This document shows, in pieces, positions 3,003-21,905 of a DNA stretch of 44,102 nucleotides. The notes beneath the pieces were generated by a model, which was not told where the DNA came from, made no database searches, and was given only the letters and a program-made list of their open reading frames with translations. The translations under genes were made by a program, and so were the position numbers. Numbering within the stretch: position 1 is the first letter of the stretch; the number at the start of each line of letters is the position of its first letter. The DNA comes from a virus. The DNA is taken from UHGV virus genome UHGV-0016039; one strand, 5' to 3'.

Positions 3003-3791
3003 ATGGCTAAAGTCAACCTGAAAAATGTGCGCGTATGTTTCCTGAAAATTTGGGAACGTGATACCCCTAAACAGGATGGACAAAAACCGGCATACCGCGC
3101 CGTGATTCTTCTTGATAAAGAAGACCCGCAGGTGGACAAAGTGGAGGCGGCAGCGCGCGCAGTGCTCACCGACAAGCTGAAATCCGAGAAGAATGCCGAT
3201 AAGTGGATGGACCGCCACTACGCCCAGGATTCTAAGGAATGTGCAGTTCGCGACGGCGACGAGCGCGATGAAGTAACCGAAGAGTTCGAAGGCATGTTGT
3301 ACATCAACGCCAAATCGTTCAAACAGCCTAACATCCAAACGTCACTGGGCGAGAAGCAGACCGAGCAAGGTCTGACCGTAGACGGCGACGAGATCGAAGG
3401 CCAGGAGATCTACTCCGGTTGTTATTGCAATGTGTCCCTGGATATTTGGGCGTGGAACAATACCAACGGCAAGGGGCTCGGGGCCGGCTTGCTGGGTCTG
3501 CGATTCCGTGAAGACGGCGAAGCCTTCGGGGGTGGCGGGTCTTCATGTTCTGACGAAGACCTGGACAACGATGACGAAGACGAAAGCCCGCGTAAGTCCA
3601 AAAAGTCAAAACGTCGTGATGACGATGACGAAGACGACAAGCCGCGTAAGTCCAAAAAATCCAAGCGCAGCGATGACGATGACGACGACGACGAAGACGA
3701 AAAGCCTCGCAAACGTCGTAAACCACGCGATGACGAAGATGAGGACGACGAAGACGAAGACGAAGCACCACGCAAACGTCGCCGCCGTTAA
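3003..3791 (+). CDS. DUF2815-type phage ssDNA-binding-like protein with C-terminal D/E-rich and PRKSKK repeat tail
   Basis: ATG 3003 preceded by GAGGAA; N-terminal MAKVNLKNVRV..F motif; gene order DUF2800-DUF2815-PolA. Confidence 0.7.
   Translation: MAKVNLKNVRVCFLKIWERDTPKQDGQKPAYRAVILLDKEDPQVDKVEAAARAVLTDKLKSEKNADKWMDRHYAQDSKECAVRDGDERDEVTEEFEGMLYINAKSFKQPNIQTSLGEKQTEQGLTVDGDEIEGQEIYSGCYCNVSLDIWAWNNTNGKGLGAGLLGLRFREDGEAFGGGGSSCSDEDLDNDDEDESPRKSKKSKRRDDDDEDDKPRKSKKSKRSDDDDDDDEDEKPRKRRKPRDDEDEDDEDEDEAPRKRRRR
3556..3788 (+). repeat. in-frame charged tandem repeats (DDDDEDD-KPRKSKKSKR units) at C-terminus of SSB-like protein
   Basis: repeated gacga(t/c)ga.. and ccgcgtaagtccaaaaa units visible in DNA. 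Confidence 0.65.
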
Positions 3792-3809
3792 GGGCAAAGC
3801 CCACTATTC

Positions 3810-3834
3810 AAGCCCGCTTAATGCGGGCTTTTTA
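3810..3834 (+). terminator. rho-independent terminator
   Basis: stem aagcccgc/gcgggctt followed by ttt. Confidence 0.65.
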
Positions 3835-3849
3835 ATAGGACAATGAAAA

Positions 3850-4020
3850 ATGCGTATTAAAGCCAGCGAAGTAAAAGTCGGAATGCAAGTATGGTCCAAA
3901 TTGCTGGGCGAGTATTTCACCGTTGCCGAGATTCGCAACAACGGCGAGGAGATCACCCTTTCCGACGGTATCTCCTCCATGATCGGCAGCGCTGACGCCG
4001 TAGTGAGGATAAAGCAATGA
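3850..4020 (+). CDS. small hypothetical protein (56 aa), stop overlaps PolA start (ATGA)
   Basis: ATG 3850 to TGA 4018-4020 read by hand; below the ORF-track length cutoff. Confidence 0.35.
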   Translation: MRIKASEVKVGMQVWSKLLGEYFTVAEIRNNGEEITLSDGISSMIGSADAVVRIKQ

Positions 4021-6308
4021 AAGACTTCGAACGCCTATTTCTCGACACAGAGACATTCAGCGATGTGGACCTGAAGAAAGTCGGCGCTTACGCCTACGCA
4101 GAACACCCGTCAACCGAGATTATGATTTGCACCTACGCCATCGACGAGGGCCGCGTGCAGACATGGGACGCCACTGAATCCCCCACGATGCCGCGTGAAC
4201 TACGCAAGGCGCTCCGCCATGTAACCCGCAAAAAAGCAAAAATAGTGATGGCGAACGGCCTCCTGTTTGACCGCCTGGTTATCCGTGAAAAGTGGGGCAT
4301 TGACCTGCCGGTAAGCCAGATCGAAGATACCATGATTATGGCCTTCCGACATGCGCTGCCGGGTGGCCTTGATATGCAATGCCAGGTGCTGGGCGTGGAC
4401 GCAGAGCACGCGAAGGATAAGGCGGGCAAGGCGCTGATTAAACGATTCTGTAAGCCTACCCCTAAGACCTACAAAATCCGCCGCTACACGCGCGAGACTC
4501 ACCCGGAAGAATGGGCTAAATTCCTGCGCTATGCCGCGCTGGATACTATCGCAATGCGTGAAGTCTACTGGCGCATACCGGACTGGGGCAACTCCCCGAA
4601 GGAAGACGAAATCCTGCTTATCGACCAGTTGATTAACGACCGCGGTTTCTATGTGGACGTTGACCTAGCTAACGCCGCGATCAAGGCGGTGCAGGTGCAT
4701 AAAGAAGAATTGAAGGAAGAAGCCTGGGAGCGTTTTGGCGGTAAGCTAACCGGCAACGACTTCCTGCCAATCCTGCGTGATATCGCCCCTGCGTTCACTA
4801 TTCACAACGCGCAGAAATCAACGCTGAATGACTTGCTGGAAGACCCAGACTTCCCCGACGAGGGCAAGGTGCTCATTGAGATGCGCCTCGGTGCGTCATC
4901 AACGGCATCGACTAAGTACAATCCGCTCGTCAATGGCCTGTCCGCCGATGGTCGCCGCCGTGGTTGTCTTCAGTATGGTGGGGCAAAGCGCACGCTACGC
5001 TGGGCCGGTAAAGGCTTTCAACCTCAAAACCTGGCGCGTGGCGAGTACAGCGACGACCACGAAGGGAAGATTAAACGCCGCGAGGGTGAAAGCGACGTCT
5101 CGTTTTGGGTCCGGTCGCACATGCTCACCAACGGCATCAACTCCCTGTTACGCGGGACCGCACACTGGGCGTATGACATATCGAAGCTAACGGCATCGAC
5201 CGTTCGCGGGTGCATTATTCCTGCGAAGGGTAAGAAGTTTGTCGTAGCGGACTACTCCAACGTGGAAGGGCGTGGCCTTGCCTGGATCGCTGGCGAGAAA
5301 ACAGCGCTCATGGTGTTTAAGGCCGGTCGCGATATCTATTGTGAGACTGCCGGTAAGATGTTCGGCCTGGACCCGGACTACATTAAAGCCAACCGCAAGG
5401 ACTTACGCCAGATCGGTAAGGCGTGCGAATTGGGACTGGGCTATGGTGGCGGCGTCGCGGCGTTCTTGCAGTTCGCTAAAAACCTGGGCCTCGACCTTTA
5501 CACTATGGCGGACGTGATGAAAGGCACGTTCCCGGATCACATTTGGGCGGCGGCGAAACGTGGTTATGAGTACGCTCGCATTAACGAAGCGAAGCGCCCG
5601 CCGAAGCCGGGCAAGAAGGACGAGCGCCCAACATACATACTGCCGAAAAACGTATGGCTTACTTGTGACGCAATCAAACGTATGTGGCGTGAGGCTCACC
5701 CGAAGACGGTAGCCTTTTGGGCCGAGCTTGAGGACGCTGTGTTGTGTGCAATCCGCAATCCGGGCAAAGCATACTGGGCTGGCGCGAACGTTCGCCCGGA
5801 CGGTAGAAAAGCGCTCAAGATTGTCCGTACGAAGGCGAAGCACGACCCAACCTTTGACGAGGAGCGCGACGACCCGAACGCCGCGGGGTGGTGGTTGAAA
5901 ATTGAGTTGCCGTCGGGGCGCATCATGAGCTACCCCGGCATCGCGCTGTCTGTCACGACCGAGATTGACGAAGACACCGGCAAGAAGCGCACCAGCACAC
6001 GCATTAAATATCAGGGCGAGAATCAGACGACGCGCCAGTGGGGATTCCAGTATACCTACGGCGGCAAACTGACGGAGAACATCGTACAGGCGTTGTGCCG
6101 CGATATTCTCGCATGGTCCATGCCTGGCGTTGAAGCTGCGGGGTATAAAATCGTCCTGTCGGTGCATGATGAATTGATCACAGAAGTGCCGGACACCGAC
6201 GACTACACTACCGAGGAACTTTGCGCGCTGATGTGCGACCTGCCTATTTGGGCGAAGGGCTTCCCACTTGCCGCCGAAGGCGACATCATGTACAGGTACA
6301 GGAAGTAA
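4017..6308 (+). CDS. DNA polymerase, family A, with 3'-5' exonuclease domain
   Basis: N-terminal LFLDTETFS exo motif; RQIGKACELGLGYGGG (motif B K...YG); VHDELITEV (motif C). Confidence 0.92.
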   Translation: MKDFERLFLDTETFSDVDLKKVGAYAYAEHPSTEIMICTYAIDEGRVQTWDATESPTMPRELRKALRHVTRKKAKIVMANGLLFDRLVIREKWGIDLPVSQIEDTMIMAFRHALPGGLDMQCQVLGVDAEHAKDKAGKALIKRFCKPTPKTYKIRRYTRETHPEEWAKFLRYAALDTIAMREVYWRIPDWGNSPKEDEILLIDQLINDRGFYVDVDLANAAIKAVQVHKEELKEEAWERFGGKLTGNDFLPILRDIAPAFTIHNAQKSTLNDLLEDPDFPDEGKVLIEMRLGASSTASTKYNPLVNGLSADGRRRGCLQYGGAKRTLRWAGKGFQPQNLARGEYSDDHEGKIKRREGESDVSFWVRSHMLTNGINSLLRGTAHWAYDISKLTASTVRGCIIPAKGKKFVVADYSNVEGRGLAWIAGEKTALMVFKAGRDIYCETAGKMFGLDPDYIKANRKDLRQIGKACELGLGYGGGVAAFLQFAKNLGLDLYTMADVMKGTFPDHIWAAAKRGYEYARINEAKRPPKPGKKDERPTYILPKNVWLTCDAIKRMWREAHPKTVAFWAELEDAVLCAIRNPGKAYWAGANVRPDGRKALKIVRTKAKHDPTFDEERDDPNAAGWWLKIELPSGRIMSYPGIALSVTTEIDEDTGKKRTSTRIKYQGENQTTRQWGFQYTYGGKLTENIVQALCRDILAWSMPGVEAAGYKIVLSVHDELITEVPDTDDYTTEELCALMCDLPIWAKGFPLAAEGDIMYRYRK

Positions 6309-9827: not shown

Positions 9828-10286
9828 GTGAAAATTTTACAAGAAGAGAAAAATTACGGGGCCGCGCAATGCCTCGAAGCCCGCGAACAGGCCGAACGCG
9901 CGAACGCGCTGGCGGACACCTACCTGGCGAGCTATGAAGGCGAGGAGAAGGCGCGCAAGGAATTAGAGGAGCGCTTCGATCTGCTGTATGAGTTGATGGG
10001 TATTATGCAGCGCACCGGATACACCACCACCGTCGCGCTAAACCGCATCACTGCCGAAGGTCTGCGCGAGCATTGCAAACGTGCCGAGGCGTACGTGCGC
10101 CCCAAAGGTCACCAGTCTAAGATCGACCGGAAAGACCTGGTGCTTATGGCGTGGCGCGCAAACGGTAGCTACTACTCCGATTGCCGACCGCTTAGCGTCG
10201 AGGGGGGAAAGCGCCTGCAACGCGTTCTAAACAGTGGTAAGAAAATTGCCCTGTACGCGATAGATCAAGACCATGCAGAAGAGTGA
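9828..10286 (+). CDS. hypothetical protein (152 aa), helical/coiled-coil N-terminus
   Basis: ORF track; GTG start directly after upstream stop. Confidence 0.4.
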   Translation: MKILQEEKNYGAAQCLEAREQAERANALADTYLASYEGEEKARKELEERFDLLYELMGIMQRTGYTTTVALNRITAEGLREHCKRAEAYVRPKGHQSKIDRKDLVLMAWRANGSYYSDCRPLSVEGGKRLQRVLNSGKKIALYAIDQDHAEE

Positions 10287-10758
10287 GCAGAAAGATAGCT
10301 GGCGCACACCGCCAGCTTTATTTAAACCGCTGCGCCGTAAGTTCCGATTCCGTTACGATATGGCGGCAAGCGACGCCAATCATCTGCTACCGCGTTACTT
10401 CACGGCAGAGCACAGCGCGCTTGATGTGGACTGGGCAGAGTTGAAAGGGTGGAAATGGTGCAATCCGCCGTATTCCGATCCGCTGCCGTGGGTGGAATGC
10501 GCAGCGCACGGACGGCGGACTGTCATGCTACTGAATCAGGACACGTCGACTAAGTGGGCGAAGTTGGCCCGGAAGACTGCAAACCTGATAATTCTTCTGG
10601 ACTGGCGGATTAGATTCATTCACGCCGTCACCGGCGAAGTCGGTCCGAGCAATAACAAGTGCCAGCAATTGATAATCTTTGACGAAGCGCCACCCCTCGG
10701 CAGCGCACAAATTGAAATAATGAGCGAAGGAGAACTCCTTGAATATCTTAATCGTTGA
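10273..10758 (+). CDS. dam: DNA N6-adenine methyltransferase (phage Dam-type)
   Basis: WRTPPALF N-terminus and NPPY catalytic motif (WCNPPYSDP). Confidence 0.8.
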   Translation: MQKSEQKDSWRTPPALFKPLRRKFRFRYDMAASDANHLLPRYFTAEHSALDVDWAELKGWKWCNPPYSDPLPWVECAAHGRRTVMLLNQDTSTKWAKLARKTANLIILLDWRIRFIHAVTGEVGPSNNKCQQLIIFDEAPPLGSAQIEIMSEGELLEYLNR

Positions 10759-10963
10759 CCGCGACCCTGCGGTCGTAGACCGAATGCAAAAAGACTACGG
10801 CATTGACCCGCGGCGCAATCATGTGGTGCGCGCATCTCATCCCGGACGCATCATGGGCCTTGACCTCAACGGTTGGCTTGTCATGACTCAGCGTTGCCAT
10901 TTCGTATGCAACTCCTTTACTGCGCGAAGCGCCCGACAGACACTTATTGAGAGCTTAAAATGA
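10739..10963 (+). CDS. hypothetical protein (74 aa)
   Basis: TTG start at 10739, 6 nt after AAGGAG; ATGA overlap with next gene. Confidence 0.4.
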   Translation: MNILIVDRDPAVVDRMQKDYGIDPRRNHVVRASHPGRIMGLDLNGWLVMTQRCHFVCNSFTARSARQTLIESLK

Positions 10964-11430
10964 AATTACTGATTTGCGATTTGGATGGCGTTATTAATGG
11001 TTCAAGCGATGCGCGTGCCGACCTGGTTCCGGGCATAAAAACAAAATCCACCTTCTGGGCGAAGTGGCACAAAGCGCACGTCCGCGAAGACCTGAACATG
11101 GATATGCTGCCGCTGTTGCGCATGTACAAAGAGCAAGGCTTCGAGATCGCGTATCTGACAAACCGGCAGCTAGAATGTTGGGACACCACCGCCGAGCAAT
11201 TGGAGGTCTTCCCGGTAGGCAGGTTATTCATGCGCCACATGCTGGACGACACCCCGCCGCCAGAGTTTAAAGCGTGCGCTGTGTTCAAAATGGTCTGCTA
11301 TGCGGACGTATCGGAACTGGTCATCATTGAAGACTGTCCGAAGAACATCGCGGCAATTCGTCGGGCGTGCAGCGATTTAATCCCGAAAATTTACGCAATA
11401 AACGTTGCAAAATTTACTTGCAACCAATAG
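10960..11430 (+). CDS. HAD-superfamily phosphatase-like protein (possible nucleotidase)
   Basis: motif I LICDLDGVI, motif II AYLTNR, acidic motif IIEDC. Confidence 0.6.
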   Translation: MKLLICDLDGVINGSSDARADLVPGIKTKSTFWAKWHKAHVREDLNMDMLPLLRMYKEQGFEIAYLTNRQLECWDTTAEQLEVFPVGRLFMRHMLDDTPPPEFKACAVFKMVCYADVSELVIIEDCPKNIAAIRRACSDLIPKIYAINVAKFTCNQ

Positions 11431-11441
11431 GTTGGTTGCAG
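11418..11441 (+). promoter_or_regulatory. perfect 10-bp inverted repeat TTGCAACCAA-tagg-TTGGTTGCAg (candidate operator/promoter element)
   Basis: palindrome read directly from sequence, 50 bp upstream of ATG 11493. Confidence 0.45.
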
Positions 11442-11492
11442 TATCTTAATCACGTCGGGGGCAATACCGCCTCCACTAAAAAGGAAAACATC

Positions 11493-12014
11493 ATGAAAGC
11501 ATACGAATACTGCAAAAACGCCGCTACCACTATGGAACAGCGCGGGAAAGAAAACGGCTATGACAACGCGAAAGAAGAACGCAGCGCTAAACAGATCGCC
11601 GCCGTGTTTAACGCGCTTACCGGGCGCGACCTTACCGAGCAAGAAGCCTGGACCTTCCTGATCTGTCTGAAGCTGGTGCGCCAGAACCGTAAGCACCAGG
11701 AAGATAACATCGTGGATCTGGTGGCGTATGCCGCCCTGCTGGGCGAGTCTTACATGACCGTGCATGACGAGATTCAGATCGACACAACGGCAGCGCAATA
11801 CGGCAGCCTAAAAGGTTGGCCCATCGCCACCGCAGGGACGTGGCATCCTTCGTCATCGGTGGGTAAGACTGTCAATGCCGAAATTAGCGGTATTGCGGGT
11901 CAAGAATTCCAGCCTATGGTCGTGCTCACCGGCGAAGACGGATCGAAAATCTGCATGACGCAGGAAGATTTCCGTATCATGGAAAAAACACTGGTGACTA
12001 GTGCACTTAAATAA
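11493..12014 (+). CDS. hypothetical protein (173 aa)
   Basis: ATG 11493 preceded by AAGGAA; ORF track frame 11367..12014. Confidence 0.55.
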   Translation: MKAYEYCKNAATTMEQRGKENGYDNAKEERSAKQIAAVFNALTGRDLTEQEAWTFLICLKLVRQNRKHQEDNIVDLVAYAALLGESYMTVHDEIQIDTTAAQYGSLKGWPIATAGTWHPSSSVGKTVNAEISGIAGQEFQPMVVLTGEDGSKICMTQEDFRIMEKTLVTSALK

Positions 12015-12054
12015 TTTAATCGCGGGCTTCGGCCCGCATCAATGAGGACTCATA

Positions 12055-12630
12055 ATGTACGGCGAATATGAAATAACCGGTAAACAATTCCACCTGGCGG
12101 CAATGATAGCAAGCATCGAGTTTGACCAGTGGCGGTATAAGTCCGACGCGTGCAAGCAAAGCAGACTCGTCGGTGTGCTGGGCGAAATGTTTGCAGGCAT
12201 GTACCTCGAAGGGCAGGCGGGCGGGCGTAGCTGTATCCCGCAAGGTTTGCTAATGCGTACCGGCCTGTTTAGCGCTAACACTATCGACCGCGGCGATATT
12301 ATCATGGTCGGTAAGCGCAAGGTTAAGTCCGGTCCCGACTTCCGGGAACACATGATTGATGCCGTATGGACCTACGAGGTAAAAGCCGCCAGCGGCATCC
12401 GTCGCGGACTTGTCGAGGCACGTTGCGCTCGCGAATATCTATCACGTCGCGTTGCCGGTGTTATCCTGGTGGGGGTGTCGTTAGGGCCGCAAAGCGCGCA
12501 CGGCGTGATTGAGGATATTGCGGAACCGTACGTGATTGTGAACGACTGGCCCTTAGTGGAAGTGGAAGGAAAGGAATATTACGAAAGCCAGCTGGTGCGG
12601 CGCAAAATGGACTGGGAAAACTCAAACTAA
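12055..12630 (+). CDS. hypothetical protein (191 aa)
   Basis: ATG 12055 preceded by GAGGA. Confidence 0.55.
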   Translation: MYGEYEITGKQFHLAAMIASIEFDQWRYKSDACKQSRLVGVLGEMFAGMYLEGQAGGRSCIPQGLLMRTGLFSANTIDRGDIIMVGKRKVKSGPDFREHMIDAVWTYEVKAASGIRRGLVEARCAREYLSRRVAGVILVGVSLGPQSAHGVIEDIAEPYVIVNDWPLVEVEGKEYYESQLVRRKMDWENSN

Positions 12631-12652
12631 AAAGGGGCCGTATGGCCCCTTA
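12629..12652. terminator. bidirectional terminator at convergence of + early block and - tail fiber gene
   Basis: aaaa-aggggcc-gtat-ggcccct; T-run on the - strand side. Confidence 0.6.
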
Positions 12653-12655
12653 GCC

Positions 12656-14416
12656 TTATTGCTTCAGCGCCGCGATCTCGGCTTTCAACGCCTCCACCTG
12701 CTTAATCGTATCTTGCAATGCGCGCATAGTATCAAGTAACAGCGGCGTCGGGTCTAATTCTAACTGGTGCACTAGCGGCCCATTTAATTCCTGGTTGTTA
12801 TACACGCGATGCTTCACGTACAGCGGGTCTATTTCTTCCGCTTCCTGCGCAATAATACCGCGACGCTGCCGTTTCTGTTCATCGTTGTTGAATACGAACG
12901 TACGGAACCGCAAAGCCTTGATATTGTCGTAGGCGGTGCGGCTGGCGTCATCTTCAATATCATGTTTCAGGTTGCGATCCGACGCAGGCACTTGCTGGAA
13001 CGACCCCACGCCCAGTGGCCCACTGTAAGAAATCTGCCCCTGGTCGTCAAAGCGGAAGTGCATATACGTAGCCATATTCCCCTCGGAGTCACGGTCAGTT
13101 GTGCCGATCGAAATCTGTGCCCGAGGCCAGGCTTCGCCCCCAGTCGTCATCATCCCGAACGACACGCCGCCTGCGTATCCTATGCTTTGTGTTACACAAG
13201 CACCGGCGATTAACGACTGAAAGTTTTCCGCGTAGGTCTGCGCTATGTACGGGTCCGCGCGCACAACGGCCTCGGACCATAGCTGATTATACCCCATCGG
13301 TCCTTTAGAGGATTTGAACTGATGGCCTAAAATACGTGAGCGCGTTGCCCAAGTGTCACCGCTCTCGTAATACAGCCATTCAGCCGCATATCCGCCGCTG
13401 CCGTTGCTTTTTCGCACATATAAGCCGGGGTCTGAGTTTCCGTCTGGTGATAGGATAGCTATGGACGCAAAAACCCCCTTACTACCCCAGTTTGACCCGT
13501 CCCACGTGTTTCGACCCGCGGAGATACCACGGGACGTCACCAGGTCCCCTAAGTTAAGAGAGTCGTCAGGCCCGATGCCTAAGTGACTGCGAGCTGCCGC
13601 GGGGTCGGCAACGTCGCTAAGGTTGTTGCCCTTTGCCAGAAATTTCGACGGGTCGATCTCATTCTTGAATTGTTCGGCCTCGTTCCGGTATCCCCGTGCG
13701 GCATCACGGGCGGCTTGCGCGTCAGTCTTCGCCGTATTGGCCTCGTCGCGAATAGCACCGGTTTCAGTCTTGATCTGGTTCGTCTGGTCTTTTATAGCCT
13801 GCGTATCAGACTTAATCTGATCGGTTTGCGTTTTGATGGTATTAGTGGCGTCGTGGACCGCCTGCGTATCCGCCTTAATCTGATTGGTGGCATCGCGAAT
13901 ACCAGCCGTCTCGGTCTTGAAGCCTTCGGCCTCATTGCTAAACCCTTGCGCAGCTGCTTCAGATGCGGCGGCTTGTTGTTGCAGGTTGCGCATCTCAACG
14001 GGGTCGATCTGTTTCATCAACTGCGACAGATAGCCCCATGACATCCCCTGCATAACCTGCCCGTTAGGTAGCGTAATGGTGATTTCTTCAGCGTCGCCGA
14101 AGATTGCACGCCAGTTGTTTTCATCTGCAATCATCAAGCGCAATGCTTTCTGCGCCTGTACTGTAATGCCCATCGTCGCCAGCGACATGGTATCGCGCGC
14201 AACGCCATCCCATGCAAGGCCGGTTGCCGTTGGGCCGTCGAACGGCAGCACCAGAGTAAGCGCGGTGTCGCTATCGACGGACGCGATCGCCACAGTGTAA
14301 GGGACTTGCCCTACTACCAGCGATAAGAAGTCGCCAGCCTTGAACGCGGTAAACGTTGTTCCGACGCCGACAACCGCCTTGCTGTTATTCGTTACGGATA
14401 GAGTACCCGCTGCCAT
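12656..14416 (-). CDS. tail fiber protein with internal heptad-like repeats and C-terminal intramolecular chaperone (S74-type) domain
   Basis: repeated TNQIK.DTQAI units; C-terminal SDRNLKHDIED...ALRFRTFVF motif; ATG 14416 with AAGAGGA. Confidence 0.85.
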   Translation of the reverse strand: MAAGTLSVTNNSKAVVGVGTTFTAFKAGDFLSLVVGQVPYTVAIASVDSDTALTLVLPFDGPTATGLAWDGVARDTMSLATMGITVQAQKALRLMIADENNWRAIFGDAEEITITLPNGQVMQGMSWGYLSQLMKQIDPVEMRNLQQQAAASEAAAQGFSNEAEGFKTETAGIRDATNQIKADTQAVHDATNTIKTQTDQIKSDTQAIKDQTNQIKTETGAIRDEANTAKTDAQAARDAARGYRNEAEQFKNEIDPSKFLAKGNNLSDVADPAAARSHLGIGPDDSLNLGDLVTSRGISAGRNTWDGSNWGSKGVFASIAILSPDGNSDPGLYVRKSNGSGGYAAEWLYYESGDTWATRSRILGHQFKSSKGPMGYNQLWSEAVVRADPYIAQTYAENFQSLIAGACVTQSIGYAGGVSFGMMTTGGEAWPRAQISIGTTDRDSEGNMATYMHFRFDDQGQISYSGPLGVGSFQQVPASDRNLKHDIEDDASRTAYDNIKALRFRTFVFNNDEQKRQRRGIIAQEAEEIDPLYVKHRVYNNQELNGPLVHQLELDPTPLLLDTMRALQDTIKQVEALKAEIAALKQ

Positions 14417-14437
14417 AGCTAAATCCTCTTAAATTGG

Positions 14438-14466
14438 TTGCATTCTTGATCGAGCGGTGTAATACT
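14438..14466 (+). promoter_or_regulatory. promoter TTGCAT-17bp-AATACT with ATTGGTTGCA element, driving + strand lipoprotein operon
   Basis: TTGGTTGCA at 14434; -35/-10 spacing 17. Confidence 0.45.
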
Positions 14467-14496
14467 AAAACTCAACCAAATATAGGAGATGATACC

Positions 14497-14727
14497 ATGA
14501 AAACTTTAATCAAATCTGCAATCATTGCCGTGGTGGTGAGTATGGCCGTTGGTTGCTCTTCTGGCCCGCGTCCGGACGGTTGGTGCGCGACACAAGCAAG
14601 CGGCGTATGTGTAGCTAAATGGAAAGGCGGTGTCGTTGTTCCGGCGGGTGAGGTTGATATCCGTTATGACGGTATTAAAGGGCATAGCGGATCGGTTCGT
14701 GATTATGGGTCCAGGGAGTGGAACTAA
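14497..14727 (+). CDS. small lipoprotein (signal peptide plus lipobox AVGC, 4 Cys); candidate Llp/Cor-like superinfection-exclusion protein
   Basis: [22 protein letters not shown]; AGGAG 8 nt upstream of ATG 14497. Confidence 0.7.
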
Positions 14728-15662
14728 TGGCGCAAGGTATCTTCATCGATCTTAACGACGGGCGTAACCCGATGACAATCACCGCAGGTATGCGCGCCTT
14801 GAATTTCGCGGGGAACTTCAATGTTTCAAGTGGTGGATTTAGTAAGACATTTCCAATTCAAGGTAATGAAGGGGCTTCCAGGTTTATTCTCCCTAACAAC
14901 GGCGCATACTCCTTCGAACTGGACCGTGGTGTTGAGGTTTATTATATAACGGGCTTTTCATCAACAGCATCCAGCGGAACAATTTCTATTGGTTATGAGA
15001 ATGGTTATCCAGACCGCATAACGCAGTTCTCCGGAACTGTAGTAGAGGTTCTTAGGGCATCGACAGGTCAGGGGCTTTACGTTGCCGACAGTACGGATTT
15101 CACATCAATAACCACAACTGACAGGTTGCTTGTCTGCAAATTCGCTCAAACTATAACATTCTATGATAGTTACACCCTTCCGATATACGGCATACCGTTC
15201 GGCAGGTGGGATAATTCCGGTGTTTCTGTTGAGTACGACGGTGTTAATCGGTTGATATGCACAAACATAAACACAAATGATACAGGGCACACGCCAGGAA
15301 GTGTTACTATGGATTTGGTTATTTTCCAGATGGTTGCGCCAGTGCCGGGGCCGGGGTTAAACATATTTAACCACAACGGCGCCTGTACCCTTTCAACAGT
15401 TACCAGACCCCTTGTTGTGTCCGGATTTATAAATCTGTCAGGTAGCAATCAGTATATTGGTGATTCTTACTTCCCAATACTAAGGTGTGGGTTCAACACT
15501 CGGGCCATACCGGCATACAAGGAACTAAGAAACAAAGGCGTAGTTATGAGCGGCGGATATGTAAGGTCGGGAACTGGCTCCCGAATTGTAAGGTACGAAA
15601 TCGGCAACAGACCCGATGTTACTATCCCAACTCCGCTGCCGTACCTCCCCAACATGTATTAA
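14727..15662 (+). CDS. hypothetical protein (311 aa), Ser/Thr/Gly/Asn-rich, co-transcribed with lipoprotein
   Basis: ATG 14727 overlaps lipoprotein stop (TAATG), GGGAG 8 nt upstream. Confidence 0.55.
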   Translation: MAQGIFIDLNDGRNPMTITAGMRALNFAGNFNVSSGGFSKTFPIQGNEGASRFILPNNGAYSFELDRGVEVYYITGFSSTASSGTISIGYENGYPDRITQFSGTVVEVLRASTGQGLYVADSTDFTSITTTDRLLVCKFAQTITFYDSYTLPIYGIPFGRWDNSGVSVEYDGVNRLICTNINTNDTGHTPGSVTMDLVIFQMVAPVPGPGLNIFNHNGACTLSTVTRPLVVSGFINLSGSNQYIGDSYFPILRCGFNTRAIPAYKELRNKGVVMSGGYVRSGTGSRIVRYEIGNRPDVTIPTPLPYLPNMY

Positions 15663-15680
15663 AGCCCCTTACGGGGCTTT
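15662..15680. terminator. bidirectional hairpin terminator between convergent genes
   Basis: aagcccc-ttac-ggggctt. Confidence 0.55.
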
Positions 15681-15684
15681 AGCT

Positions 15685-18600
15685 TCAGAATGTACCTACT
15701 ACAACCCGGCCCCCTCCAGGCAGGTTAACCGTGACCCCATTCCCGTTAATCTGCACGGTGTTATTTTGTCCGTTAAAAGCGAACTCACCACTGTTAGCGT
15801 ACAGCCTGCCGCGTACGGTCACATTGTTGAACTCGGCCCCACCATCCTTCCAGATACGCCAGCCGCGCGACCCTGTAACGAAGTTATTTGATTGCAGCGT
15901 GTCCGTGATCTGTGCGAAGTTGATGGACGCGTTCTTGATGCGTGCCGTGTCAATATACACCTGCCCGCCGTCAACGATAAAAGCGGACGACAGCGACCCA
16001 TTCGACGGGTGCATAATGTAGAACTGGTCCGCCTTGAACGCGATACGTGATTTAACCGCGCCACCTTCGGCCACGACGGAAAGCTGCATACCGGCATCAT
16101 AGTAAGTCCCGTTATACGTCACGCCGGCCTTAAGGCTGTATGTGGCGCTTCCGCCAGCATGGTTAAACGAGGACGTCATCTTCTGCTCTATAGCCGCGGA
16201 CTGCTCCCCGAACTGCGCGGCTACTTGGGTCTTGTACTCCGCCAGCGCGCCCGCTACGTCTGCCGTTGCCGTTTGTGCCTGCTGGATGGCGGCTTCCTGT
16301 TCCCCGAACTTAGCGGCAACAGTTTGTTGGTACTGGGCGAACGCTTGTTCGTGCGTGCTTTGCGCGGTCTGCAACGTGTGGATTGACGCCTCCGCATCAT
16401 CAAGTCGTGTGCCGATCAACGTTTCCAGTTGCGCGACGGCCTTGTGGGCGTCTGCCGCCACGTTATACGCCACCTTGATTTCGGCATAAATCCCTTTGTA
16501 CTCGGCGCGGGCGTTGAATAGCTGCTGGGCATCGGTGAGCATTGACTCATAAATGCCTTGCGGGATCGTGTTAATAGCTTCCTGGAAGTGTTTACCATCC
16601 TCGGAAGTCAGGAACTCGTCATCAAGCCCCTTCATGTACTCGTCAACTTTGTCACTCACCTGCCCTTCAAACGGGTCCGACCAGTCCGATAGGTTGCCGA
16701 TTTTATCCGCTACACGGGCGCGCAACTGCTGATAGATCCCGAACTCCAGCGACGTTTGGGCGTACTCCGCCCCCGGATATGGGACGTTTGTAAGAAATTT
16801 CCATTCCGTTTCCCCTGTCTTACGCACCTCAAGCTCGGTGTACGAAATATCCGTCGCGGCGTTGTTGTGGTTCCACTTCCACAAAATCTGATGGAGGCCA
16901 GAAATCGCGTTGGTGATGATAGGTGCGTTAAGCCCGCCGAGACGACCATCCACCGGCGTGATAGCGGACGATACCCACGGGGACGAAATCTCGCCCATAC
17001 CGATTGCGCGGACGCGTGCCTGGTAGTTACCGGAGAACACGTTAGGGATGTGAGCGCCGTTCGATGCCGTGCGGGGGATGTTCACCCAGTCGTTACCCCA
17101 CTGGATTTCCATATTCTGTAAGCTGGTACGTCGCCACTGGATTTCATACACCACGGCATCCTTCACCGGCGGGAATACAATATCCACGTTGGTGATTAGC
17201 TGGCCTTGCGATGAAATCTGCGACGGGGTGATGGTCACGGACTCCGGCCCCTTCATTACGCCGTCAGGAACTTGCGTAAAGATGCCTGGGTCAAGGCGAG
17301 CGCCATTATCGACGGCATCATATTTGCTATCGTTGTACTCGATCCCGCGCACTGAAAAAGTGCTGGTAGAGTCGTCATATTCCAGGTCGGTGATGCGGAA
17401 CTTCTGCAACTGGATATCGTTGCCATCAACGCAAAACGGCTGGTCTGGAATAGGGTCGGCGTCCAGTGCGGTTTTTAGCGTAACCTTGTTGCCGTTGACG
17501 CTGGCGATCTCGCGAGTCTCCACATTACCGCTATCGGTGCGTACCATGAATTTATCACCGGGGCGGAACGTGATTTCGCTGTCTGTGTTAAGCACCGTCC
17601 GCGTGCCCGGATCTGACAACAGACGACCGCCGCGTGTCTCGAAGCCGCCAGAAATGTTTGTATCGGCGATCGCGACTACGCTACCCGGAATAAAGAATAG
17701 TCCTTCCATGCCCACCTTAAAGCTAACTTGCTGGTCAAGCTGGTTGGAGATTAGCGCCCAGTGACCGCGGCGTTGCGCTTCCGATTCACGCGTACAGCCG
17801 ATCGCCGTAATATCAAGACGGTTAATCTTATGGCGGCGTACCAGTTCGACACGTTGCCCCGTTGCGATGGCATCATCATAGTGGTTTTTCGGGTTGCCGT
17901 ATGCGACCGCGAAAGTTGAATAGCGCGTTTTCTGGCTGCCAGATGCGTAGTCGAATCGACCATCAATAACCGAGGCGTTGGTGATAGTGTGTGACACTGC
18001 CGCGACTGGTTGGTCACTGACGATATTCAACATCTGGTTGCCCCACCAGGTCATTCCGGCGAAGATGGCGGCTAAATCCTTAAGCACGGTCCATGCGTCT
18101 GTCTGCGACTGGATGTACATATCATTCTTGAATCGGATTTCCCGTCCGCCGTTGCCGTCGCTGACCAACTGATCGCAGCGCTGCGCAATCTGGTAGAGCG
18201 CGTATCGGTTCAGCATTTGCGGTTTGATACGCCGACCGAGGCCGAATCGCTCAGTAATACAAATATCATACCAGTGCCACGCAGGGTTATCCGTCCATGC
18301 GCGTTTGAATGTGCCGTCCCAGTCCCCAGAATAAGTATGATTAATCGGGTCGTAGTTGTTCGGTATTAGAACTTTGCGGCCTTTGCACTTGATGGACACG
18401 CGCGGGATGTTCTGGAACGCTTTGGCATCGAACTCCACAAACAACAGCGCGGTTAGCGGGTAACGCAGGCGGGCGTCGATAATCTCAGTGATGGACTGCA
18501 CCCGGATATCATTAACCACTTTCGCCGATGTGGAGTCCGCCGTCGTGCGGTGTACCTCAACTCGCCAGCCGGTATTAGCGTTCGGCGGTAACTCGATGCG

Positions 18601-19137
18601 GTGGTCGCGCTCGTACAGCGACATTGTTTTACCGACGGCAGCGAAGGTAAACTCACGCGGATCCGCGTTATCGGTATACACGACGATTTTATAGTCGATT
18701 CGCCCGCCCACCAGGTCGCCATTGTCTTCGTTAGTGTACAGTGCCGGGATTCCGACTCGAATGCGCACGGCGTCAAGACTGGTGTCGTTAATCTGGCGCA
18801 CCCACGGCGTGCCGTTTTCCAGTTTTACACCCACTGTTTGCTCGCTTTCCACTGCGGAAAATCCGTGGATTACATCCTGGTGCTGTGTGCCTGGGCGGAA
18901 CTCCACGCGCGCGCCGGGGAAGTTTTCGGATCGGTCGGCGTTCTGGATCGGTGTTCCGTCCAGGTATACGCGCTGCCGTAATTCGTTAGGGTCGGTAATG
19001 CCTTCGAACTCACCTTCGCCCAGGGCAAGCAAGATGCGGATTTTAGCCAGCGAATGCAGGCTGTCAGGCGTCTCCTGTGGGGTGTGCTGTTTGCCGCCGC
19101 CGCCTTTATGGCCTGTGACGTCGTAGATAATCGTCAT
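15685..19137 (-). CDS. tail tip / host specificity protein, lambda J-like
   Basis: 1150 aa; YSGDWDGTFKRAW..WHWYD..RYALYQIAQRCDQLV block matches the conserved lambda J core; ATGA overlap with upstream gene. Confidence 0.9.
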   Translation of the reverse strand: MTIIYDVTGHKGGGGKQHTPQETPDSLHSLAKIRILLALGEGEFEGITDPNELRQRVYLDGTPIQNADRSENFPGARVEFRPGTQHQDVIHGFSAVESEQTVGVKLENGTPWVRQINDTSLDAVRIRVGIPALYTNEDNGDLVGGRIDYKIVVYTDNADPREFTFAAVGKTMSLYERDHRIELPPNANTGWRVEVHRTTADSTSAKVVNDIRVQSITEIIDARLRYPLTALLFVEFDAKAFQNIPRVSIKCKGRKVLIPNNYDPINHTYSGDWDGTFKRAWTDNPAWHWYDICITERFGLGRRIKPQMLNRYALYQIAQRCDQLVSDGNGGREIRFKNDMYIQSQTDAWTVLKDLAAIFAGMTWWGNQMLNIVSDQPVAAVSHTITNASVIDGRFDYASGSQKTRYSTFAVAYGNPKNHYDDAIATGQRVELVRRHKINRLDITAIGCTRESEAQRRGHWALISNQLDQQVSFKVGMEGLFFIPGSVVAIADTNISGGFETRGGRLLSDPGTRTVLNTDSEITFRPGDKFMVRTDSGNVETREIASVNGNKVTLKTALDADPIPDQPFCVDGNDIQLQKFRITDLEYDDSTSTFSVRGIEYNDSKYDAVDNGARLDPGIFTQVPDGVMKGPESVTITPSQISSQGQLITNVDIVFPPVKDAVVYEIQWRRTSLQNMEIQWGNDWVNIPRTASNGAHIPNVFSGNYQARVRAIGMGEISSPWVSSAITPVDGRLGGLNAPIITNAISGLHQILWKWNHNNAATDISYTELEVRKTGETEWKFLTNVPYPGAEYAQTSLEFGIYQQLRARVADKIGNLSDWSDPFEGQVSDKVDEYMKGLDDEFLTSEDGKHFQEAINTIPQGIYESMLTDAQQLFNARAEYKGIYAEIKVAYNVAADAHKAVAQLETLIGTRLDDAEASIHTLQTAQSTHEQAFAQYQQTVAAKFGEQEAAIQQAQTATADVAGALAEYKTQVAAQFGEQSAAIEQKMTSSFNHAGGSATYSLKAGVTYNGTYYDAGMQLSVVAEGGAVKSRIAFKADQFYIMHPSNGSLSSAFIVDGGQVYIDTARIKNASINFAQITDTLQSNNFVTGSRGWRIWKDGGAEFNNVTVRGRLYANSGEFAFNGQNNTVQINGNGVTVNLPGGGRVVVGTF

Positions 19138-19745
19138 TCGTTCAAGTCCTCGGTTACGATTCCGGCGGAAATAATAGCGCCGCCGATCTCACGCTCACCC
19201 CATAATACACCAAGTGCCGTACCTTGCGCGGTCGTGTTTACCGGTCCGCCGAACGCATAAGACGCCTTGTTATCCACGTCCTGCCGTGTCTGCAATCCTT
19301 TCGGCTGTGGTGACAGCAATTGCATAACGCCACCCAGCGCCATTGACATCCCGAACGAAAACGTTGCCGTACCGATAGCGGCAGCGGTCGCGGCTGAAGC
19401 TCCGAAAGCGGCAGTAGCAAGCCCGCCGGTGTAGAACGACGCCACCACGATGGCTACGCCCGCCAGTAATTGGCCTAGTCCGCGTTTTGCGCCGGTCATA
19501 ACCGGTGCGATGGTCACTACGCGGTCGCCGTGGAACTCTCCTAACTCGTCGTATCCGGTCATTGTGTGATTGCCTTTGCGCACCTTGAACATAATATTTT
19601 CCAGGTGGGCCGACATTAGAAAGTCCTGTAAGCCAGGTAGCTTCACGCATAGGCCTGTGATACCTTCGCCCGGGGTGAAGCAATCCAGCTTGTGCACTTT
19701 ACCAAAACGACGCCCTAAGACGCCGTATAATTTAAATGTGGTCAT
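19134..19745 (-). CDS. tail assembly protein, lambda I-like
   Basis: position between K and J; C-terminal Gly/Ala hydrophobic segment; ATGA overlap with K stop at 19742-19745. Confidence 0.75.
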   Translation of the reverse strand: MTTFKLYGVLGRRFGKVHKLDCFTPGEGITGLCVKLPGLQDFLMSAHLENIMFKVRKGNHTMTGYDELGEFHGDRVVTIAPVMTGAKRGLGQLLAGVAIVVASFYTGGLATAAFGASAATAAAIGTATFSFGMSMALGGVMQLLSPQPKGLQTRQDVDNKASYAFGGPVNTTAQGTALGVLWGEREIGGAIISAGIVTEDLNE

Positions 19746-20482
19746 TGCCATTCTGTGATATCCCACGGTAAATCTTTATGACGTACCCATTTAACCACAT
19801 TGTCGCGGAAAAATCCTGCCCGGAAGGGGATCACGCTCGACAGGCTGCCGTAGATATGGTGTAGTAGTTGGTTGCCCGGAAGGTAGATTCCGGCATGGTT
19901 AGGCACTGGCGCGCTAATCTGCATGATGACCATCGCCCCAGGCGTATTCTCCTCGCATTCCCTGAAGCCTGCACCGTACCAGTTATCCATGTACAGGTTC
20001 TCCCCAGTCTCCCACCAGTTGTACGGCACGCGGAAGTCTGGCAAATTTACTCCCTGCTTTTTGTGCCAGTCCATAACTAGGCCATAACAATCCGTAATTC
20101 CGAGAACAAATCGGCGGCCTACCAGCGGCGGGTCTTCCGGGTCGATCTCGATAAAGTCGCCATATTCGTTAGTGATGGTCCAGACGACGCCGCTGCCGTT
20201 GCAGCCGTTGACGTCACCCAATGACGGGGTTAACTCGCGCTGACCGGGGTGAGAGTGGACTACGCGCACAACGTCGCCCATATCCTCGGCATCCATCCAG
20301 TCCATATCACTAATCGTGAAAGCGTCTTTGCGTGAGCGCACGCCGGTCGGGTCTTCAAACACGTTAAGGCACGGGACGAATACTTGCTTACGGCCCACCA
20401 TGACAACCAGGCCGCAGGCTTCTTCCGGCAGACATGCCGCGACGTGTGCGGCGATATCGCTTTTAACCTTCTTCGTTAACAT
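19742..20482 (-). CDS. tail tip assembly protein, lambda K-like (MPN/JAMM plus NlpC/P60)
   Basis: HSHP JAMM-like motif and DCYG cysteine motif. Confidence 0.8.
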   Translation of the reverse strand: MLTKKVKSDIAAHVAACLPEEACGLVVMVGRKQVFVPCLNVFEDPTGVRSRKDAFTISDMDWMDAEDMGDVVRVVHSHPGQRELTPSLGDVNGCNGSGVVWTITNEYGDFIEIDPEDPPLVGRRFVLGITDCYGLVMDWHKKQGVNLPDFRVPYNWWETGENLYMDNWYGAGFRECEENTPGAMVIMQISAPVPNHAGIYLPGNQLLHHIYGSLSSVIPFRAGFFRDNVVKWVRHKDLPWDITEWQ

Positions 20483-20484
20483 GA

Positions 20485-21273
20485 CTACCCCTTAATTAAT
20501 CTGGACCCCGGAAAGCCGCCGAAGTCCAGCACCGCCGCTTTCGGGTCCGCAAGCCCTTGCCCAAATCTAAGATAACAGTCGGACAAACAGCCGCCGCATC
20601 GGTCCATGTTCATCGCGATGACTTCGTTTCCGCGTTCGTCGTAATACTTGATGCCAGGCTTCGCAAGGTTCCACGTGCAGCCGTCCCCGCTGGCGTACTT
20701 CCCATTTAACGCCCATTCGCACATGTTCATGATCTGGCGGCGGGGAACTACTTGCCCCTCCATATCAGCGGGTGAGGATAATGCGAAGGTTATTTGCTTG
20801 CCCGGATTGCGCCCGACCTGTGAGTCGATGTAATACTCCTGGACACGTTTTTGCGTCGGGTCTGGGTCCGACCCGTTATCCAGGAACTTAGCAAACGTGT
20901 CGATTATTTCAACCTTCGCGCCAAGTAGCTGGTCATGATTCAACGACAGCCGGGTGATAATGCCGCCAATATCGACGATGGTTAGCTGCGGTTCTGCTGC
21001 CGTTGATGTGGAGAAGTTAAGGCCGGATAGATCGAAGGGCCAGAATTCGAATTCCTGCCCGCCGAAGAAGATGGATTTAGGTTTTAGCTTGTCCTCGTCA
21101 CCGCCTGCGGCGGCAATATCCTCGGCAGTGTGCGGGATAAAGCAATAGTGAAAATAGTGATGACCCGCGCCGATCGCGCCGTCGCCTGGTTCCACGTCCT
21201 GCGCGTCAATGTGAATCAGGCGAACGCGTCCCGATGGGTCAAAGCGCGTCGCCTCACGATATAGTTTATTCAT
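20485..21273 (-). CDS. minor tail protein, lambda L-like
   Basis: position; C-terminal Cys cluster CGGCLSDC. Confidence 0.75.
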   Translation of the reverse strand: MNKLYREATRFDPSGRVRLIHIDAQDVEPGDGAIGAGHHYFHYCFIPHTAEDIAAAGGDEDKLKPKSIFFGGQEFEFWPFDLSGLNFSTSTAAEPQLTIVDIGGIITRLSLNHDQLLGAKVEIIDTFAKFLDNGSDPDPTQKRVQEYYIDSQVGRNPGKQITFALSSPADMEGQVVPRRQIMNMCEWALNGKYASGDGCTWNLAKPGIKYYDERGNEVIAMNMDRCGGCLSDCYLRFGQGLADPKAAVLDFGGFPGSRLIKG

Positions 21274-21869
21274 CTTACGAATCCAATAGCAGTCTTAAGG
21301 GTGGCGGACACCGTTGCCGTGTTATGCCCGTTGTCAGTGTACGACAAGCTCGAACGCTCGACCACGAATAAACCTGTTTCGCCATCCGGTGCTGTGACGA
21401 CAAACGGTTTTACGAAGTGCCCGCGAAGGAAGTTGTAAACCAGTTTAGGGTCGCACCATTTGTCAGTAGTCAGTCCGACGAATTGCACGGGGAACTGTTT
21501 CGTTTCTGCGTTCGGGCCGTCAGCGATGTTCTGTCCGTAGCCATTACCGAATTGCAATTCTTCCGACCGGAAAGCTAACTGCACGTCGCCGCCGCCCTGC
21601 AATTGCATGTGCCAGTAATAGGGCCATTCGTTTGACCGCGGGTCGTGTGCTTCGATTAGCTCATATGCCGCACCGGATTTCGTCGGACCGGCCCAGTTAT
21701 CTTTCAGTGTAATGACCGTGTTCGAGTTGAATGCCGCAATTTTGCCGGTGTAGTCGTTGCCGTCGATGCGGACAAGTACGCGGACCTTCCCGATTTCGCT
21801 CAGGAACGCCGTACCCACGCCCGTGACGGTCTTACTTCCTTTAGTTAGTGTGATTGTACCTTGCGCCAT
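21270..21869 (-). CDS. minor tail protein, lambda M-like
   Basis: position between tape measure and L; ATGA overlap with L. Confidence 0.7.
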   Translation of the reverse strand: MAQGTITLTKGSKTVTGVGTAFLSEIGKVRVLVRIDGNDYTGKIAAFNSNTVITLKDNWAGPTKSGAAYELIEAHDPRSNEWPYYWHMQLQGGGDVQLAFRSEELQFGNGYGQNIADGPNAETKQFPVQFVGLTTDKWCDPKLVYNFLRGHFVKPFVVTAPDGETGLFVVERSSLSYTDNGHNTATVSATLKTAIGFVR

Positions 21870-21905
21870 AAAAAAGCCCCCACGATGGATGTGAGGGCCA
21901 TTTTA

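Follow-up and report, generated by a model that had tools for sequence, protein, structure and literature searches.

A Dhillonvirus lateral tail fibre with a heptad-repeat shaft and a C-terminal chaperone of the self-cleaving type

A tail-fibre gene in which imperfect tandem repeats are combined with the C-terminal signature of a self-cleaving chaperone raises two questions, namely whether the protein is likely to mature by autoproteolysis, and whether the repeats provide a substrate for slippage or recombination that may alter the length or the specificity of the fibre. Such a gene was described by a first-pass annotation, made from the letters alone, in the virus genome UHGV-0016039, a stretch of 44,102 nt (the window). 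Taking into account sequence, structure predictions and the alleles found in related phages, the gene very probably encodes a Dhillonvirus lateral fibre composed of an anchor, a coil shaft, a collar, a distal domain and a predicted self-cleaving S74 chaperone, with a heptad array that changes by whole heptads.

The gene, its setting and the anchor of the fibre

The complete coding sequence (12656..14416) lies on the minus strand, which the first-pass annotation left unmentioned; so do all the features described below unless otherwise stated. As confirmed by the list of open reading frames, it consists of a single frame of 586 codons plus the stop codon, with a computed mass of the precursor of 63.4 kDa. 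A Shine-Dalgarno element, AAGAGGA (14424..14430), can be read in the sequence 7 nt upstream of the ATG. Directly after the stop codon, inside the 25-nt gap that separates the convergent genes, an intrinsic-terminator-like hairpin (12632..12651; 8 pairs, 6 of which G-C) is followed by the T-rich tail TTTAGTTT. An antisense open reading frame of 152 amino acids on the plus strand (13583-14041), opposite the repeats, was set aside because it is without any support, and is attributed to the repetitive nature of the coding strand.

The assignment as a tail fibre was borne out by a profile search (PHROG 1980, ‘tail fiber protein’, E 5.6e-138) and by the records of the relatives: 150 phage records match, nearly all of them of Escherichia Dhillonvirus, and the gene is labelled in them as tail fibre or lateral tail fibre. 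The genes that adjoin it encode a J-like tip protein with GpJ domains, a DUF6453 protein and a phage lipoprotein (PF24052), the fibre gene being located beside that of the lipoprotein and downstream of the J-like gene, in an order also found in Bas84 and NJ01. The genome backbone of the whole window is nearest to those of TheodorHerzl and HK578, and an identical 586-residue protein is already public (NCBI/ENA/Logan). The phage is a Dhillonvirus coliphage (an HK578-like siphovirus), and the gene product an ordinary side (lateral) tail fibre.

The closest named full-length relatives are the fibres of Gluttony, Lust, Pride and Bas83-85 (Haito, JohannBuxtorf and RuthEpting), which have the same architecture throughout, are 81-85% identical at the nucleotide level over the full length, and are encoded at the same place in the genome, beside the lipoprotein gene and after the J-like one. 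At the protein level, the identity with this group is 93-95% in the N-terminus, 79-86% in the coil and 89-94% in the chaperone, while the group differs in having a C-terminus longer by 6 residues and a different arrangement of the heptads.

Most likely, the fibre would be a homotrimer of five modules. The first one, the anchor (aa 1-138, 14003..14416), is a conserved virion-attachment module that would dock on the tail. It is 91-95% identical even to the corresponding region of fibres with unrelated distal halves, it holds most of the invariant columns of the alignment of the homologues, and its dN/dS is 0.06-0.11; residues 1-72 resemble the N-terminus of PDB 23gd_B.

Collar, distal domain and receptor

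The shaft, to which we return below, leads to a short collar or linker, the third module (aa 254-300, 13517..13657), which contains a NNLSDVADPAAARSHLG motif that matches the repeated units of the short tail fibre gp92 (PDB 9zd7). It is in the collar or close to it that DNA similarity to relatives stops: of the 31 partial megablast matches listed, 30 end at gene nt 743-850 and one reaches nt 932.

The fourth module, the beta-rich distal domain (aa 301-478, 12983..13516), is the presumed receptor-binding domain and gives matches to C-terminal tail-fibre PHROGs. It is the most divergent segment of the protein (71-75% amino acid identity to Gluttony and Bas83-85, and 17-19% to other alleles), with a dN/dS of 0.24-0.33. 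Beta strands are modelled at aa 397-473 by AlphaFold, in a monomer model with a mean pLDDT of 59.9 that does not resolve the N-terminal domain and aa 258-389; the Foldseek matches outside the chaperone are noise.

With respect to the receptor, the lateral fibres of Bas83-85 were reported to use the O16 O-antigen, with a porin as the terminal receptor (PMC11990801). By analogy, the divergent tip formed by the distal domain of the present fibre would most likely bind, as its first and reversible receptor, a surface glycan of the O-antigen type, which may differ from O16 because the identity to the O16-binding relatives in this domain is limited to the values given above. The L-shaped fibre of T5 and DT57C (pb1, LtfA) is similar in being a siphovirus side fibre for which the O-antigen is a dispensable first receptor, and the fibre of JLBYU60 has been described as a carbohydrate-binding domain with an autocatalytic intramolecular chaperone (PMC12309495).

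The protein could instead be an enzymatic tailspike that degrades polysaccharides (a depolymerase), and not a fibre that only binds them. Endosialidases are the proteins on which S74 chaperones were discovered, and the halo plaques of another Dhillonvirus, UDS3lw, have been ascribed to its tail fibre with the help of a depolymerase predictor (PMC13348001). However, the similarity of the UDS3lw fibre to the one described here is limited to the N-terminal half, the distal domain, with approximately 180 residues, is small for a catalytic beta-helix, and the BASEL study treats Dhillonvirus fibres as lateral ones, as opposed to the glycan-targeting tailspikes of LPS-dependent siphoviruses (PMC11990801). 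The depolymerase reading is rejected, and considered highly improbable, because no enzymatic domain was found, the Pfam and PDB sequence searches having returned no hydrolase, lyase or beta-helix domain.

The S74 chaperone and the predicted self-cleavage

Fibres ending in an S74 chaperone, as those of T5 and K1F, are textbook knowledge. The first-pass annotation was right in recognizing a terminal chaperone of the self-cleaving type, a feature that is already known for such fibres, and the signature on which it relied is present as quoted, with SDRNLKHDIED starting at aa 479 and ALRFRTFVF following it. The Peptidase_S74 intramolecular chaperone, the fifth module, corresponds to the last 108 residues (aa 479-586, 12.6 kDa; 12659..12982) and ends in a helix (residues 556-585). 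The domain search found Pfam PF13884 at aa 479-534 well above the curated cut-off (E 1.4e-11, 45 bits versus 22), covering positions 1-57 of the 58 of the profile. In the AlphaFold monomer the domain is modelled with pLDDT values of 83-92 and has the make-up typical of the family, a mixed alpha/beta unit with a helix at its C-terminal end, and Foldseek retrieved the MyRF ICA (7dc3; E 1e-4, TMt 0.61-0.63), the GA-1 chaperone (3gud; TMt 0.55) and the K1F chaperone (3gw6), with probabilities of 0.94-1.0 for the three. Thus, the domains of the K1F endosialidase (3GW6), the GA-1 neck appendage (3GUD) and MyRF (7DC3) share the Peptidase_S74 family and fold with the present one, at a sequence identity of 8-20%. 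Their clients differ: those of the K1F and GA-1 chaperones are triple beta-helix spikes and that of MyRF is a eukaryotic transcription factor, whereas here it would be a small fibre tip.

T5 pb1 likewise ends in an S74 chaperone, which has the Ser...Lys(+5) pair and a trimerizing helix at its end (PDB 4UW8 per PMC4690869; 8hqz_d), the T5-like L-shaped fibre in 8hqz_d matching the present chaperone with an E value of 2e-11. The sequence similarity is confined to the chaperone. Moreover, pb1 is 1396 residues long, its chaperone has 133 residues as opposed to 108, its shaft is built otherwise than as a simple coil of heptads, and it attaches through an unrelated N-terminus. In the fibre under study, the predicted nucleophile is Ser479 (codon at 12980..12982) and the predicted general base is Lys484 (codon at 12965..12967), five residues further on, which correspond to Ser1264 and Lys1269 of T5 pb1, where the S1264A substitution blocks cleavage (PMC4690869). 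Among 78 aligned homologues, which represent more than 10 unrelated types of distal domain, both residues are invariant (78/78) and their neighbours vary, and the domain is under strong constraint, as indicated by its dN/dS of 0.07-0.09. The chaperone would trimerize through the terminal helix, act as a template for the folding of the distal domain and then cut itself off at the predicted scissile bond, Ala478-Ser479, leaving a mature fibre of 50.9 kDa and freeing a 12.6-kDa fragment.

Two details depart from the well-studied systems and would suit a different outcome, in which the S74 domain would remain attached after maturation and serve as a structural cap or form part of the receptor-binding tip. 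The residue that precedes the catalytic serine is Ala, rather than Thr as in T5 pb1, and no counterpart was located of the Arg/Asp ‘folding sensor’ that a neighbouring subunit supplies upstream of the site in K1F and T5: R455 and D457/D458 are found 21-24 residues upstream of Ser479, with a spacing unlike that of Arg1250/Asp1239 in T5, and none of the columns upstream of Ser479 reached 85% conservation across distal-domain types. However, retention would hardly account for the invariance of the Ser/Lys pair amid varying residues or for the low dN/dS, and the homologous domain is cleaved off in T5 pb1, as has been likewise reported for K1F endoNF, GA-1 and phi29 (PMC4690869). A retained domain is therefore considered unlikely, and self-cleavage remains the preferred reading. 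A search of the literature on Dhillonvirus fibres found no experimental evidence of cleavage; in a published proteomics study of the Dhillonvirus EE09 the fibre was detected with 14 peptides (34% coverage) in a lysate, as opposed to purified virions.

The heptad-repeat shaft and its length among relatives

The second module (aa 139-259) is predicted to form the shaft, a trimeric coiled coil of alpha-helices with about 16 heptads and a length of approximately 17 nm. AlphaFold predicts a long single alpha-helix at aa 139-253 (13658..14002), with pLDDT values of 80-93 across aa 170-240, and the shaft matches weakly the trimeric Lpp coiled coil in a PDB sequence search. Pfam matches to Med9, COG3, Syntaxin and others (E 0.02-0.8, all below the cut-offs) were discarded as generic coiled-coil similarity. 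The heptad array itself (aa 148-259, 13640..13975) comprises 16 uninterrupted units of 7 residues, or 21 nt, of the type xTxxIKx, with Ala or Thr at position 2 and Ile, Phe, Val, Ala or Tyr at position 5. The repeats that had been noticed at DNA 13700-13900 are real and encode aa 173-239, inside this array; the most similar ones (aa 169-231, 13724..13912) are of the xTNQIKx and DTQAIxD types, with 63-nt copies that are 60-71% identical.

At the DNA level, however, the array is visible solely by a register-aware analysis. Nucleotide self-identity at lags of 21, 42 and 63 nt is 0.39, 0.46 and 0.44, respectively, versus 0.30 ± 0.03 in 5000 codon shuffles (z 3.6-5.9), and protein identity at lag 7 is 0.29 versus 0.09, with the 21-nt periodicity limited to gene nt ~300-650. 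Tandem Repeats Finder, applied to positions 12000-15000 with a minimum score of 30, reported no repeats. No two heptad units are more than 76% identical, the longest exact repeat within the array is 11 nt, and the long, nearly identical head-to-tail DNA repeats expected of a slippage-prone locus are absent in this allele. Codon choice between the repeats of this allele gave no sign of recent duplication: identical residues in register use the same codon with a frequency of 0.37-0.41, as compared with 0.41 expected from codon usage. As this frequency does not exceed the expectation, active slippage is unsupported in this allele, the repeats of which are old, degenerate at the DNA level and a poor substrate for it.

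These data lend weight to the view that the repeats are a by-product of the coiled-coil structure rather than a mutable element, the 21-nt periodicity arising solely because each heptad needs similar residues, and that differences in length go back to infrequent, old events or to recombination among alleles, as opposed to slippage. The silence of Tandem Repeats Finder, the short exact repeats and the codon frequencies are all as this view would have them. Its merits are best judged on the relatives, where repeat number could be compared between isolates. In a survey of 118 homologues carrying both anchor motifs, the distance between the motifs is 138 aa in 89 cases and differs by -35, -28, -14, -7 or +7 aa in 28, the remaining one being the coil-less fibre of phage jat (-117 aa), so that shaft length varies in whole heptads (-5, -4, -2, -1, 0 or +1 in 117/118). 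NJ01 has two additional heptads and Shigella phage 1b two fewer. The single modal length in 75% of the homologues suggests stabilizing selection, in agreement with the by-product view, and viable insertions and deletions must be whole heptads to keep the register, whatever the mechanism. On the other hand, fresh exact tandem duplications are present in the arrays of Bas84 (45 nt, with a 42-nt spacing), NJ01 (38 nt, with 42- and 105-nt spacing) and Shigella phage 1b (19 nt, with a 21-nt spacing), and shaft lengths are mixed within 7 of the 17 distal-domain clusters; events that change the length must therefore recur. On balance, the by-product view is regarded as a serious possibility, although one that falls short of being probable.

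In the preferred reading, the array would gain and lose whole heptads in the gene family by in-frame duplication and deletion, with consequent changes in fibre length. The long, nearly identical repeats expected of a slippage substrate, as initially proposed, are present in the relatives Bas84 (45 nt) and NJ01 (38 nt), whereas this allele, with its exact repeats of 11 nt or less, would be a poor one. Similarly, an effect of the repeats on length is supported by the heptad insertions and deletions of the relatives, while one on specificity is not, as specificity most likely lies in aa 301-478 and not in the repeats.

A larger event is suggested by a 10-nt direct repeat, AGATCGACCC, encompassing codons of Q-I-D-P, the two copies of which (upstream, 14001..14010; downstream, 13650..13659; gene nt 407 and 758, with a spacing of 351 nt) bracket the coil: the fibre of jat is without exactly the 117 residues between them. 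A second coil-less allele is without the distal anchor motif and, therefore, outside the set of 118.

Whole-heptad insertions and deletions, together with complete coil loss by recombination between the AGATCGACCC copies, may recur within single receptor-binding types, and the heptad array may then be an evolvable length ruler, an idea that we put forward as speculative and rather doubtful. A literature search on variation of heptad or repeat number in the side fibres of (small) siphoviruses found no relevant paper.

The importance of the chaperone as a discovery is small, as it has already been noted for Dhillonvirus and the exact protein is public. Its practical use is for those who annotate or engineer such fibres: residues 1-478 are best annotated as the mature fibre, swaps for retargeting are best made at the collar (around aa 250-300), and a transplanted distal domain would probably need its own chaperone. 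The polymorphism of shaft length in whole heptads, natural coil-less alleles included, is a modest new point. If the length-ruler idea were true, the reach of the fibre tip could be tuned to the thickness of the O-antigen or capsule of the host, and the polymorphism provides a simple system in which to ask whether the length of the fibre affects passage through the O-antigen layer.

The fibre gene and its genomic setting

At the coordinates given in the first-pass annotation (12656-14416), the fibre is encoded by a single 586-aa open reading frame, with the qualification that the gene lies on the minus strand. The residues quoted there were also found (SDRNLKHDIED from aa 479, ALRFRTFVF further on). 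On the same strand, a Shine-Dalgarno sequence (AAGAGGA) can be read 7 nt 5' of the ATG, and a G+C-rich hairpin with a T-rich tail (12632-12651, minus) occupies the 25-nt gap that separates the gene from a convergent downstream 191-aa ORF (12055-12630). The hairpin is a perfect 8 bp stem, AAGGGGCC-ATAC-GGCCCCTT, and the T-rich tail is present on the minus strand only.

The assignment as tail fibre was borne out by a PHROG search, in which PHROG 1980 ('tail fiber protein') matched along the entire length (E 5.6e-138). Megablast of the gene against phages returned 150 records, nearly all from Dhillonvirus phages of Escherichia, with full-length matches at 81-85% identity in nine of them (Gluttony, Lust, Pride, Bas83-85, SP1, P-GXEC-L2P5). 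In the remaining 31 rows among the matches listed, similarity was restricted to the 5' part of the gene; its end falls between gene nt 743 and 850 in 30 of them, and the other one extends to nt 932. This part codes for the N-terminal domain and the repeats, and the longer matches also reach the start of the collar. A protein identical to the window fibre is present in NCBI, ENA and Logan (contigs of ~44 kb). Over its first 72 residues (14201-14416, minus), the fibre is similar to the N-terminal part of 'Distal tail protein gp20' (PDB 23gd_B, E 1.6e-4) as well as to several PHROG families labelled 'minor tail protein', a likeness that suggests a common docking module.

The gene is flanked by those of a phage lipoprotein (PF24052), a DUF6453 protein and a 1150-aa J-like tip protein, in an order common to the window, Bas84 and NJ01. 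The 76-aa lipoprotein (14497-14727, plus; E 3e-33) is divergent from the fibre gene, and its counterparts in relatives are annotated as Cor-type superinfection exclusion protein or lipoprotein. The DUF6453 protein (314 aa, 14718-15662, plus; E 6e-123) lies between the J-like and fibre genes on the opposite strand. In relatives this locus carries one of two alternative cassettes, namely DUF6453 and lipoprotein in Bas84 and NJ01, or two small same-strand genes in Gluttony and Shigella phage 1b, with an additional annotated cor gene in Gluttony. According to the BASEL papers, the DUF6453 locus is the module determining terminal-receptor (porin) specificity (PMC11990801).

Over the surrounding 12 kb (10000-22000), identity to known Dhillonviruses is 88-92%, and no phage in the August 2025 collection reaches 95%. 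The nearest backbones are those of TheodorHerzl and HK578 (about 91-92%), and for the fibre's distal half Gluttony and Bas83-85 are nearest; thus, the fibre locus is mosaic. Among the related records, 'Acinetobacter phage NJ01' is a Dhillonvirus, with its fibre at 3501-5291 of OQ221563.1 (L004) and an N-terminal half whose DNA is 87% identical to the window coliphage gene. PQ843332.1 (88,607 bp), matched by the fibre gene at two places, has the appearance of two 44-kb genome copies joined head to tail.

The C-terminal S74 chaperone

The domain search identified Peptidase_S74 (PF13884) at aa 479-534, well above the curated Pfam cut-off (45 versus 22 bits; E 1.4e-11); by sequence, the best solved relative was 8hqz_d (E 2e-11), the C-terminal end of an L-shaped, T5-like tail fibre. 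Ser479, Lys484, Gly520 and Asp555 are invariant among 78 aligned homologues carrying more than 10 unrelated distal-domain types, with variable flanking residues. The Ser...Lys(+5) spacing is that of Ser1264/Lys1269 in T5 pb1, which is cut between Thr1263 and Ser1264 and in which autoproteolysis is blocked by S1264A (PMC4690869). In a comparison by motif and identity, the NJ01 C-terminus showed no such pair and shared just 15% identity with the window S74 domain.

In an AlphaFold2 monomer model that is poor overall (pLDDT 59.9), aa 479-586 were confidently modelled (pLDDT 83-92), with a terminal helix at aa 556-585. The top Foldseek matches in the PDB were intramolecular-chaperone structures only, including the MyRF ICA (7dc3, E 1e-4, TMt 0.61-0.63), K1F endosialidase (3gw6) and GA-1 (3gud). 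An upstream Arg/Asp folding sensor, as in K1F and T5, was sought in the window fibre and could not be placed. The dN/dS of the chaperone is 0.07-0.09 (window gene versus four relatives), as low as that of the N-terminal anchor, so the domain is functional and no relic. From this very well supported homology we infer that the fibre would cleave itself; a cut at the predicted Ala478-Ser479 bond would release a 12.6-kDa fragment from a 63.4-kDa precursor and leave a fibre of 50.9 kDa (computed masses).

The heptad shaft and its DNA repeat

The region described initially as repetitive DNA (13700-13900, aa 173-239) belongs to an uninterrupted array of 16 heptads (aa 148-259, laid out in sevens), with Ala or Thr at position 2 and Ile, Phe, Val, Ala or Tyr at position 5. 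AlphaFold predicted a single helix at aa 139-253 (pLDDT up to 93), the trimeric Lpp coiled coil gave weak matches consistent with a coiled-coil reading, and the array is, as modelled, a coiled-coil shaft of ~17 nm. The 21-nt/7-aa periodicity is statistically real: nucleotide self-identity at lags 21, 42 and 63 was 0.39, 0.46 and 0.44 versus 0.30 ± 0.03 in codon shuffles (z 3.6-5.9), lag-7 protein identity was 0.29 versus 0.09, and the signal is limited to the repeat part of the gene.

As DNA, however, the repeat is weak. TRF reported no tandem repeat; heptad units are at most 76% identical, the best 63-nt copies 71%, and the longest exact repeat within the array is 11 nt. In-register identical residues share a codon in 37-41% of pairs versus 41% expected from the codon usage of the gene. 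By codon identity and exact repeats, no sign of recent duplication or homogenization was found in the window allele; the protein heptad repeat thus accounts fully for its DNA repeat, which is a poor substrate for the slippage initially proposed. An antisense ORF opposite the array (152 aa, 13583-14041, plus) probably exists only because the coding strand is repetitive.

Shaft length and specificity among relatives

Repeat number does differ between phages. Shaft length, taken from the conserved N-terminal motif WGYL to the collar motif NL[SATN][DGS][VLI], was obtained for 118 of 120 homologous protein clusters. It is 138 aa, as in the window, in 89 (the modal length, kept in 75%), and differs by −7 aa in 18 clusters, −14 in five, −28 in two, −35 in three and +7 in one, all whole heptads. 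The exception is the coil-less fibre of Escherichia phage jat (cluster P0022, 476 aa; −117 aa), which lacks exactly the 117 aa between two copies of the 10-nt direct repeat AGATCGACCC (in the window at 14001-14010 and 13650-13659, minus; spacing 351 nt) that bracket the whole coiled coil. Outside the 118, the coil is also missing from cluster P0012 (451 aa), a second such allele that lacks the collar motif as well and has a junction different from that of jat; one other cluster gave no anchor-motif match by script. Counted directly, Shigella phage 1b has two heptads fewer than the window and NJ01 two more, and the order of heptad unit types varies from phage to phage. Exact, fresh duplications are present in the arrays of Bas84 (45 nt, 42-nt spacing), NJ01 (38 nt, 42- and 105-nt spacing) and Shigella phage 1b (19 nt, 21-nt spacing), and length changes recur, as judged from mixed shaft lengths inside 7 of 17 distal-domain clusters.

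Compared with Gluttony and Bas83-85, amino acid identity is 93-95% in the N-terminus, 79-86% in the coil, 73-85% in the collar, 71-75% in the distal domain (aa 301-478) and 89-94% in the chaperone; other fibre types retain 91-95% in the N-terminus versus only 17-19% in the distal domain. The dN/dS is 0.24-0.37 in collar and distal domain versus 0.06-0.11 in anchor and chaperone. Given whole-heptad variation and divergence located in the distal domain, the proposal that the repeats change fibre length or specificity stands for length, without a link to specificity. In the model published for these phages, O-antigen is bound by the lateral fibre as a means of crossing this layer, and the central fibre then engages a porin; O16 is the reported target of Bas83-85, which GtrABS glucosylation is reported to block (PMC11990801; PMC8594841). 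A carbohydrate-binding tip together with an autocatalytic intramolecular chaperone is already on record for the fibre of JLBYU60 (PMC12309495).

Overall, the observation and interpretation of the first-pass annotation both hold, with qualifications on strand, repeat nature and self-cleavage. The window fibre is an ordinary phage tail fibre of a kind described before, and the sole modestly new observation is that shaft length is polymorphic by whole heptads, coil-less alleles included.
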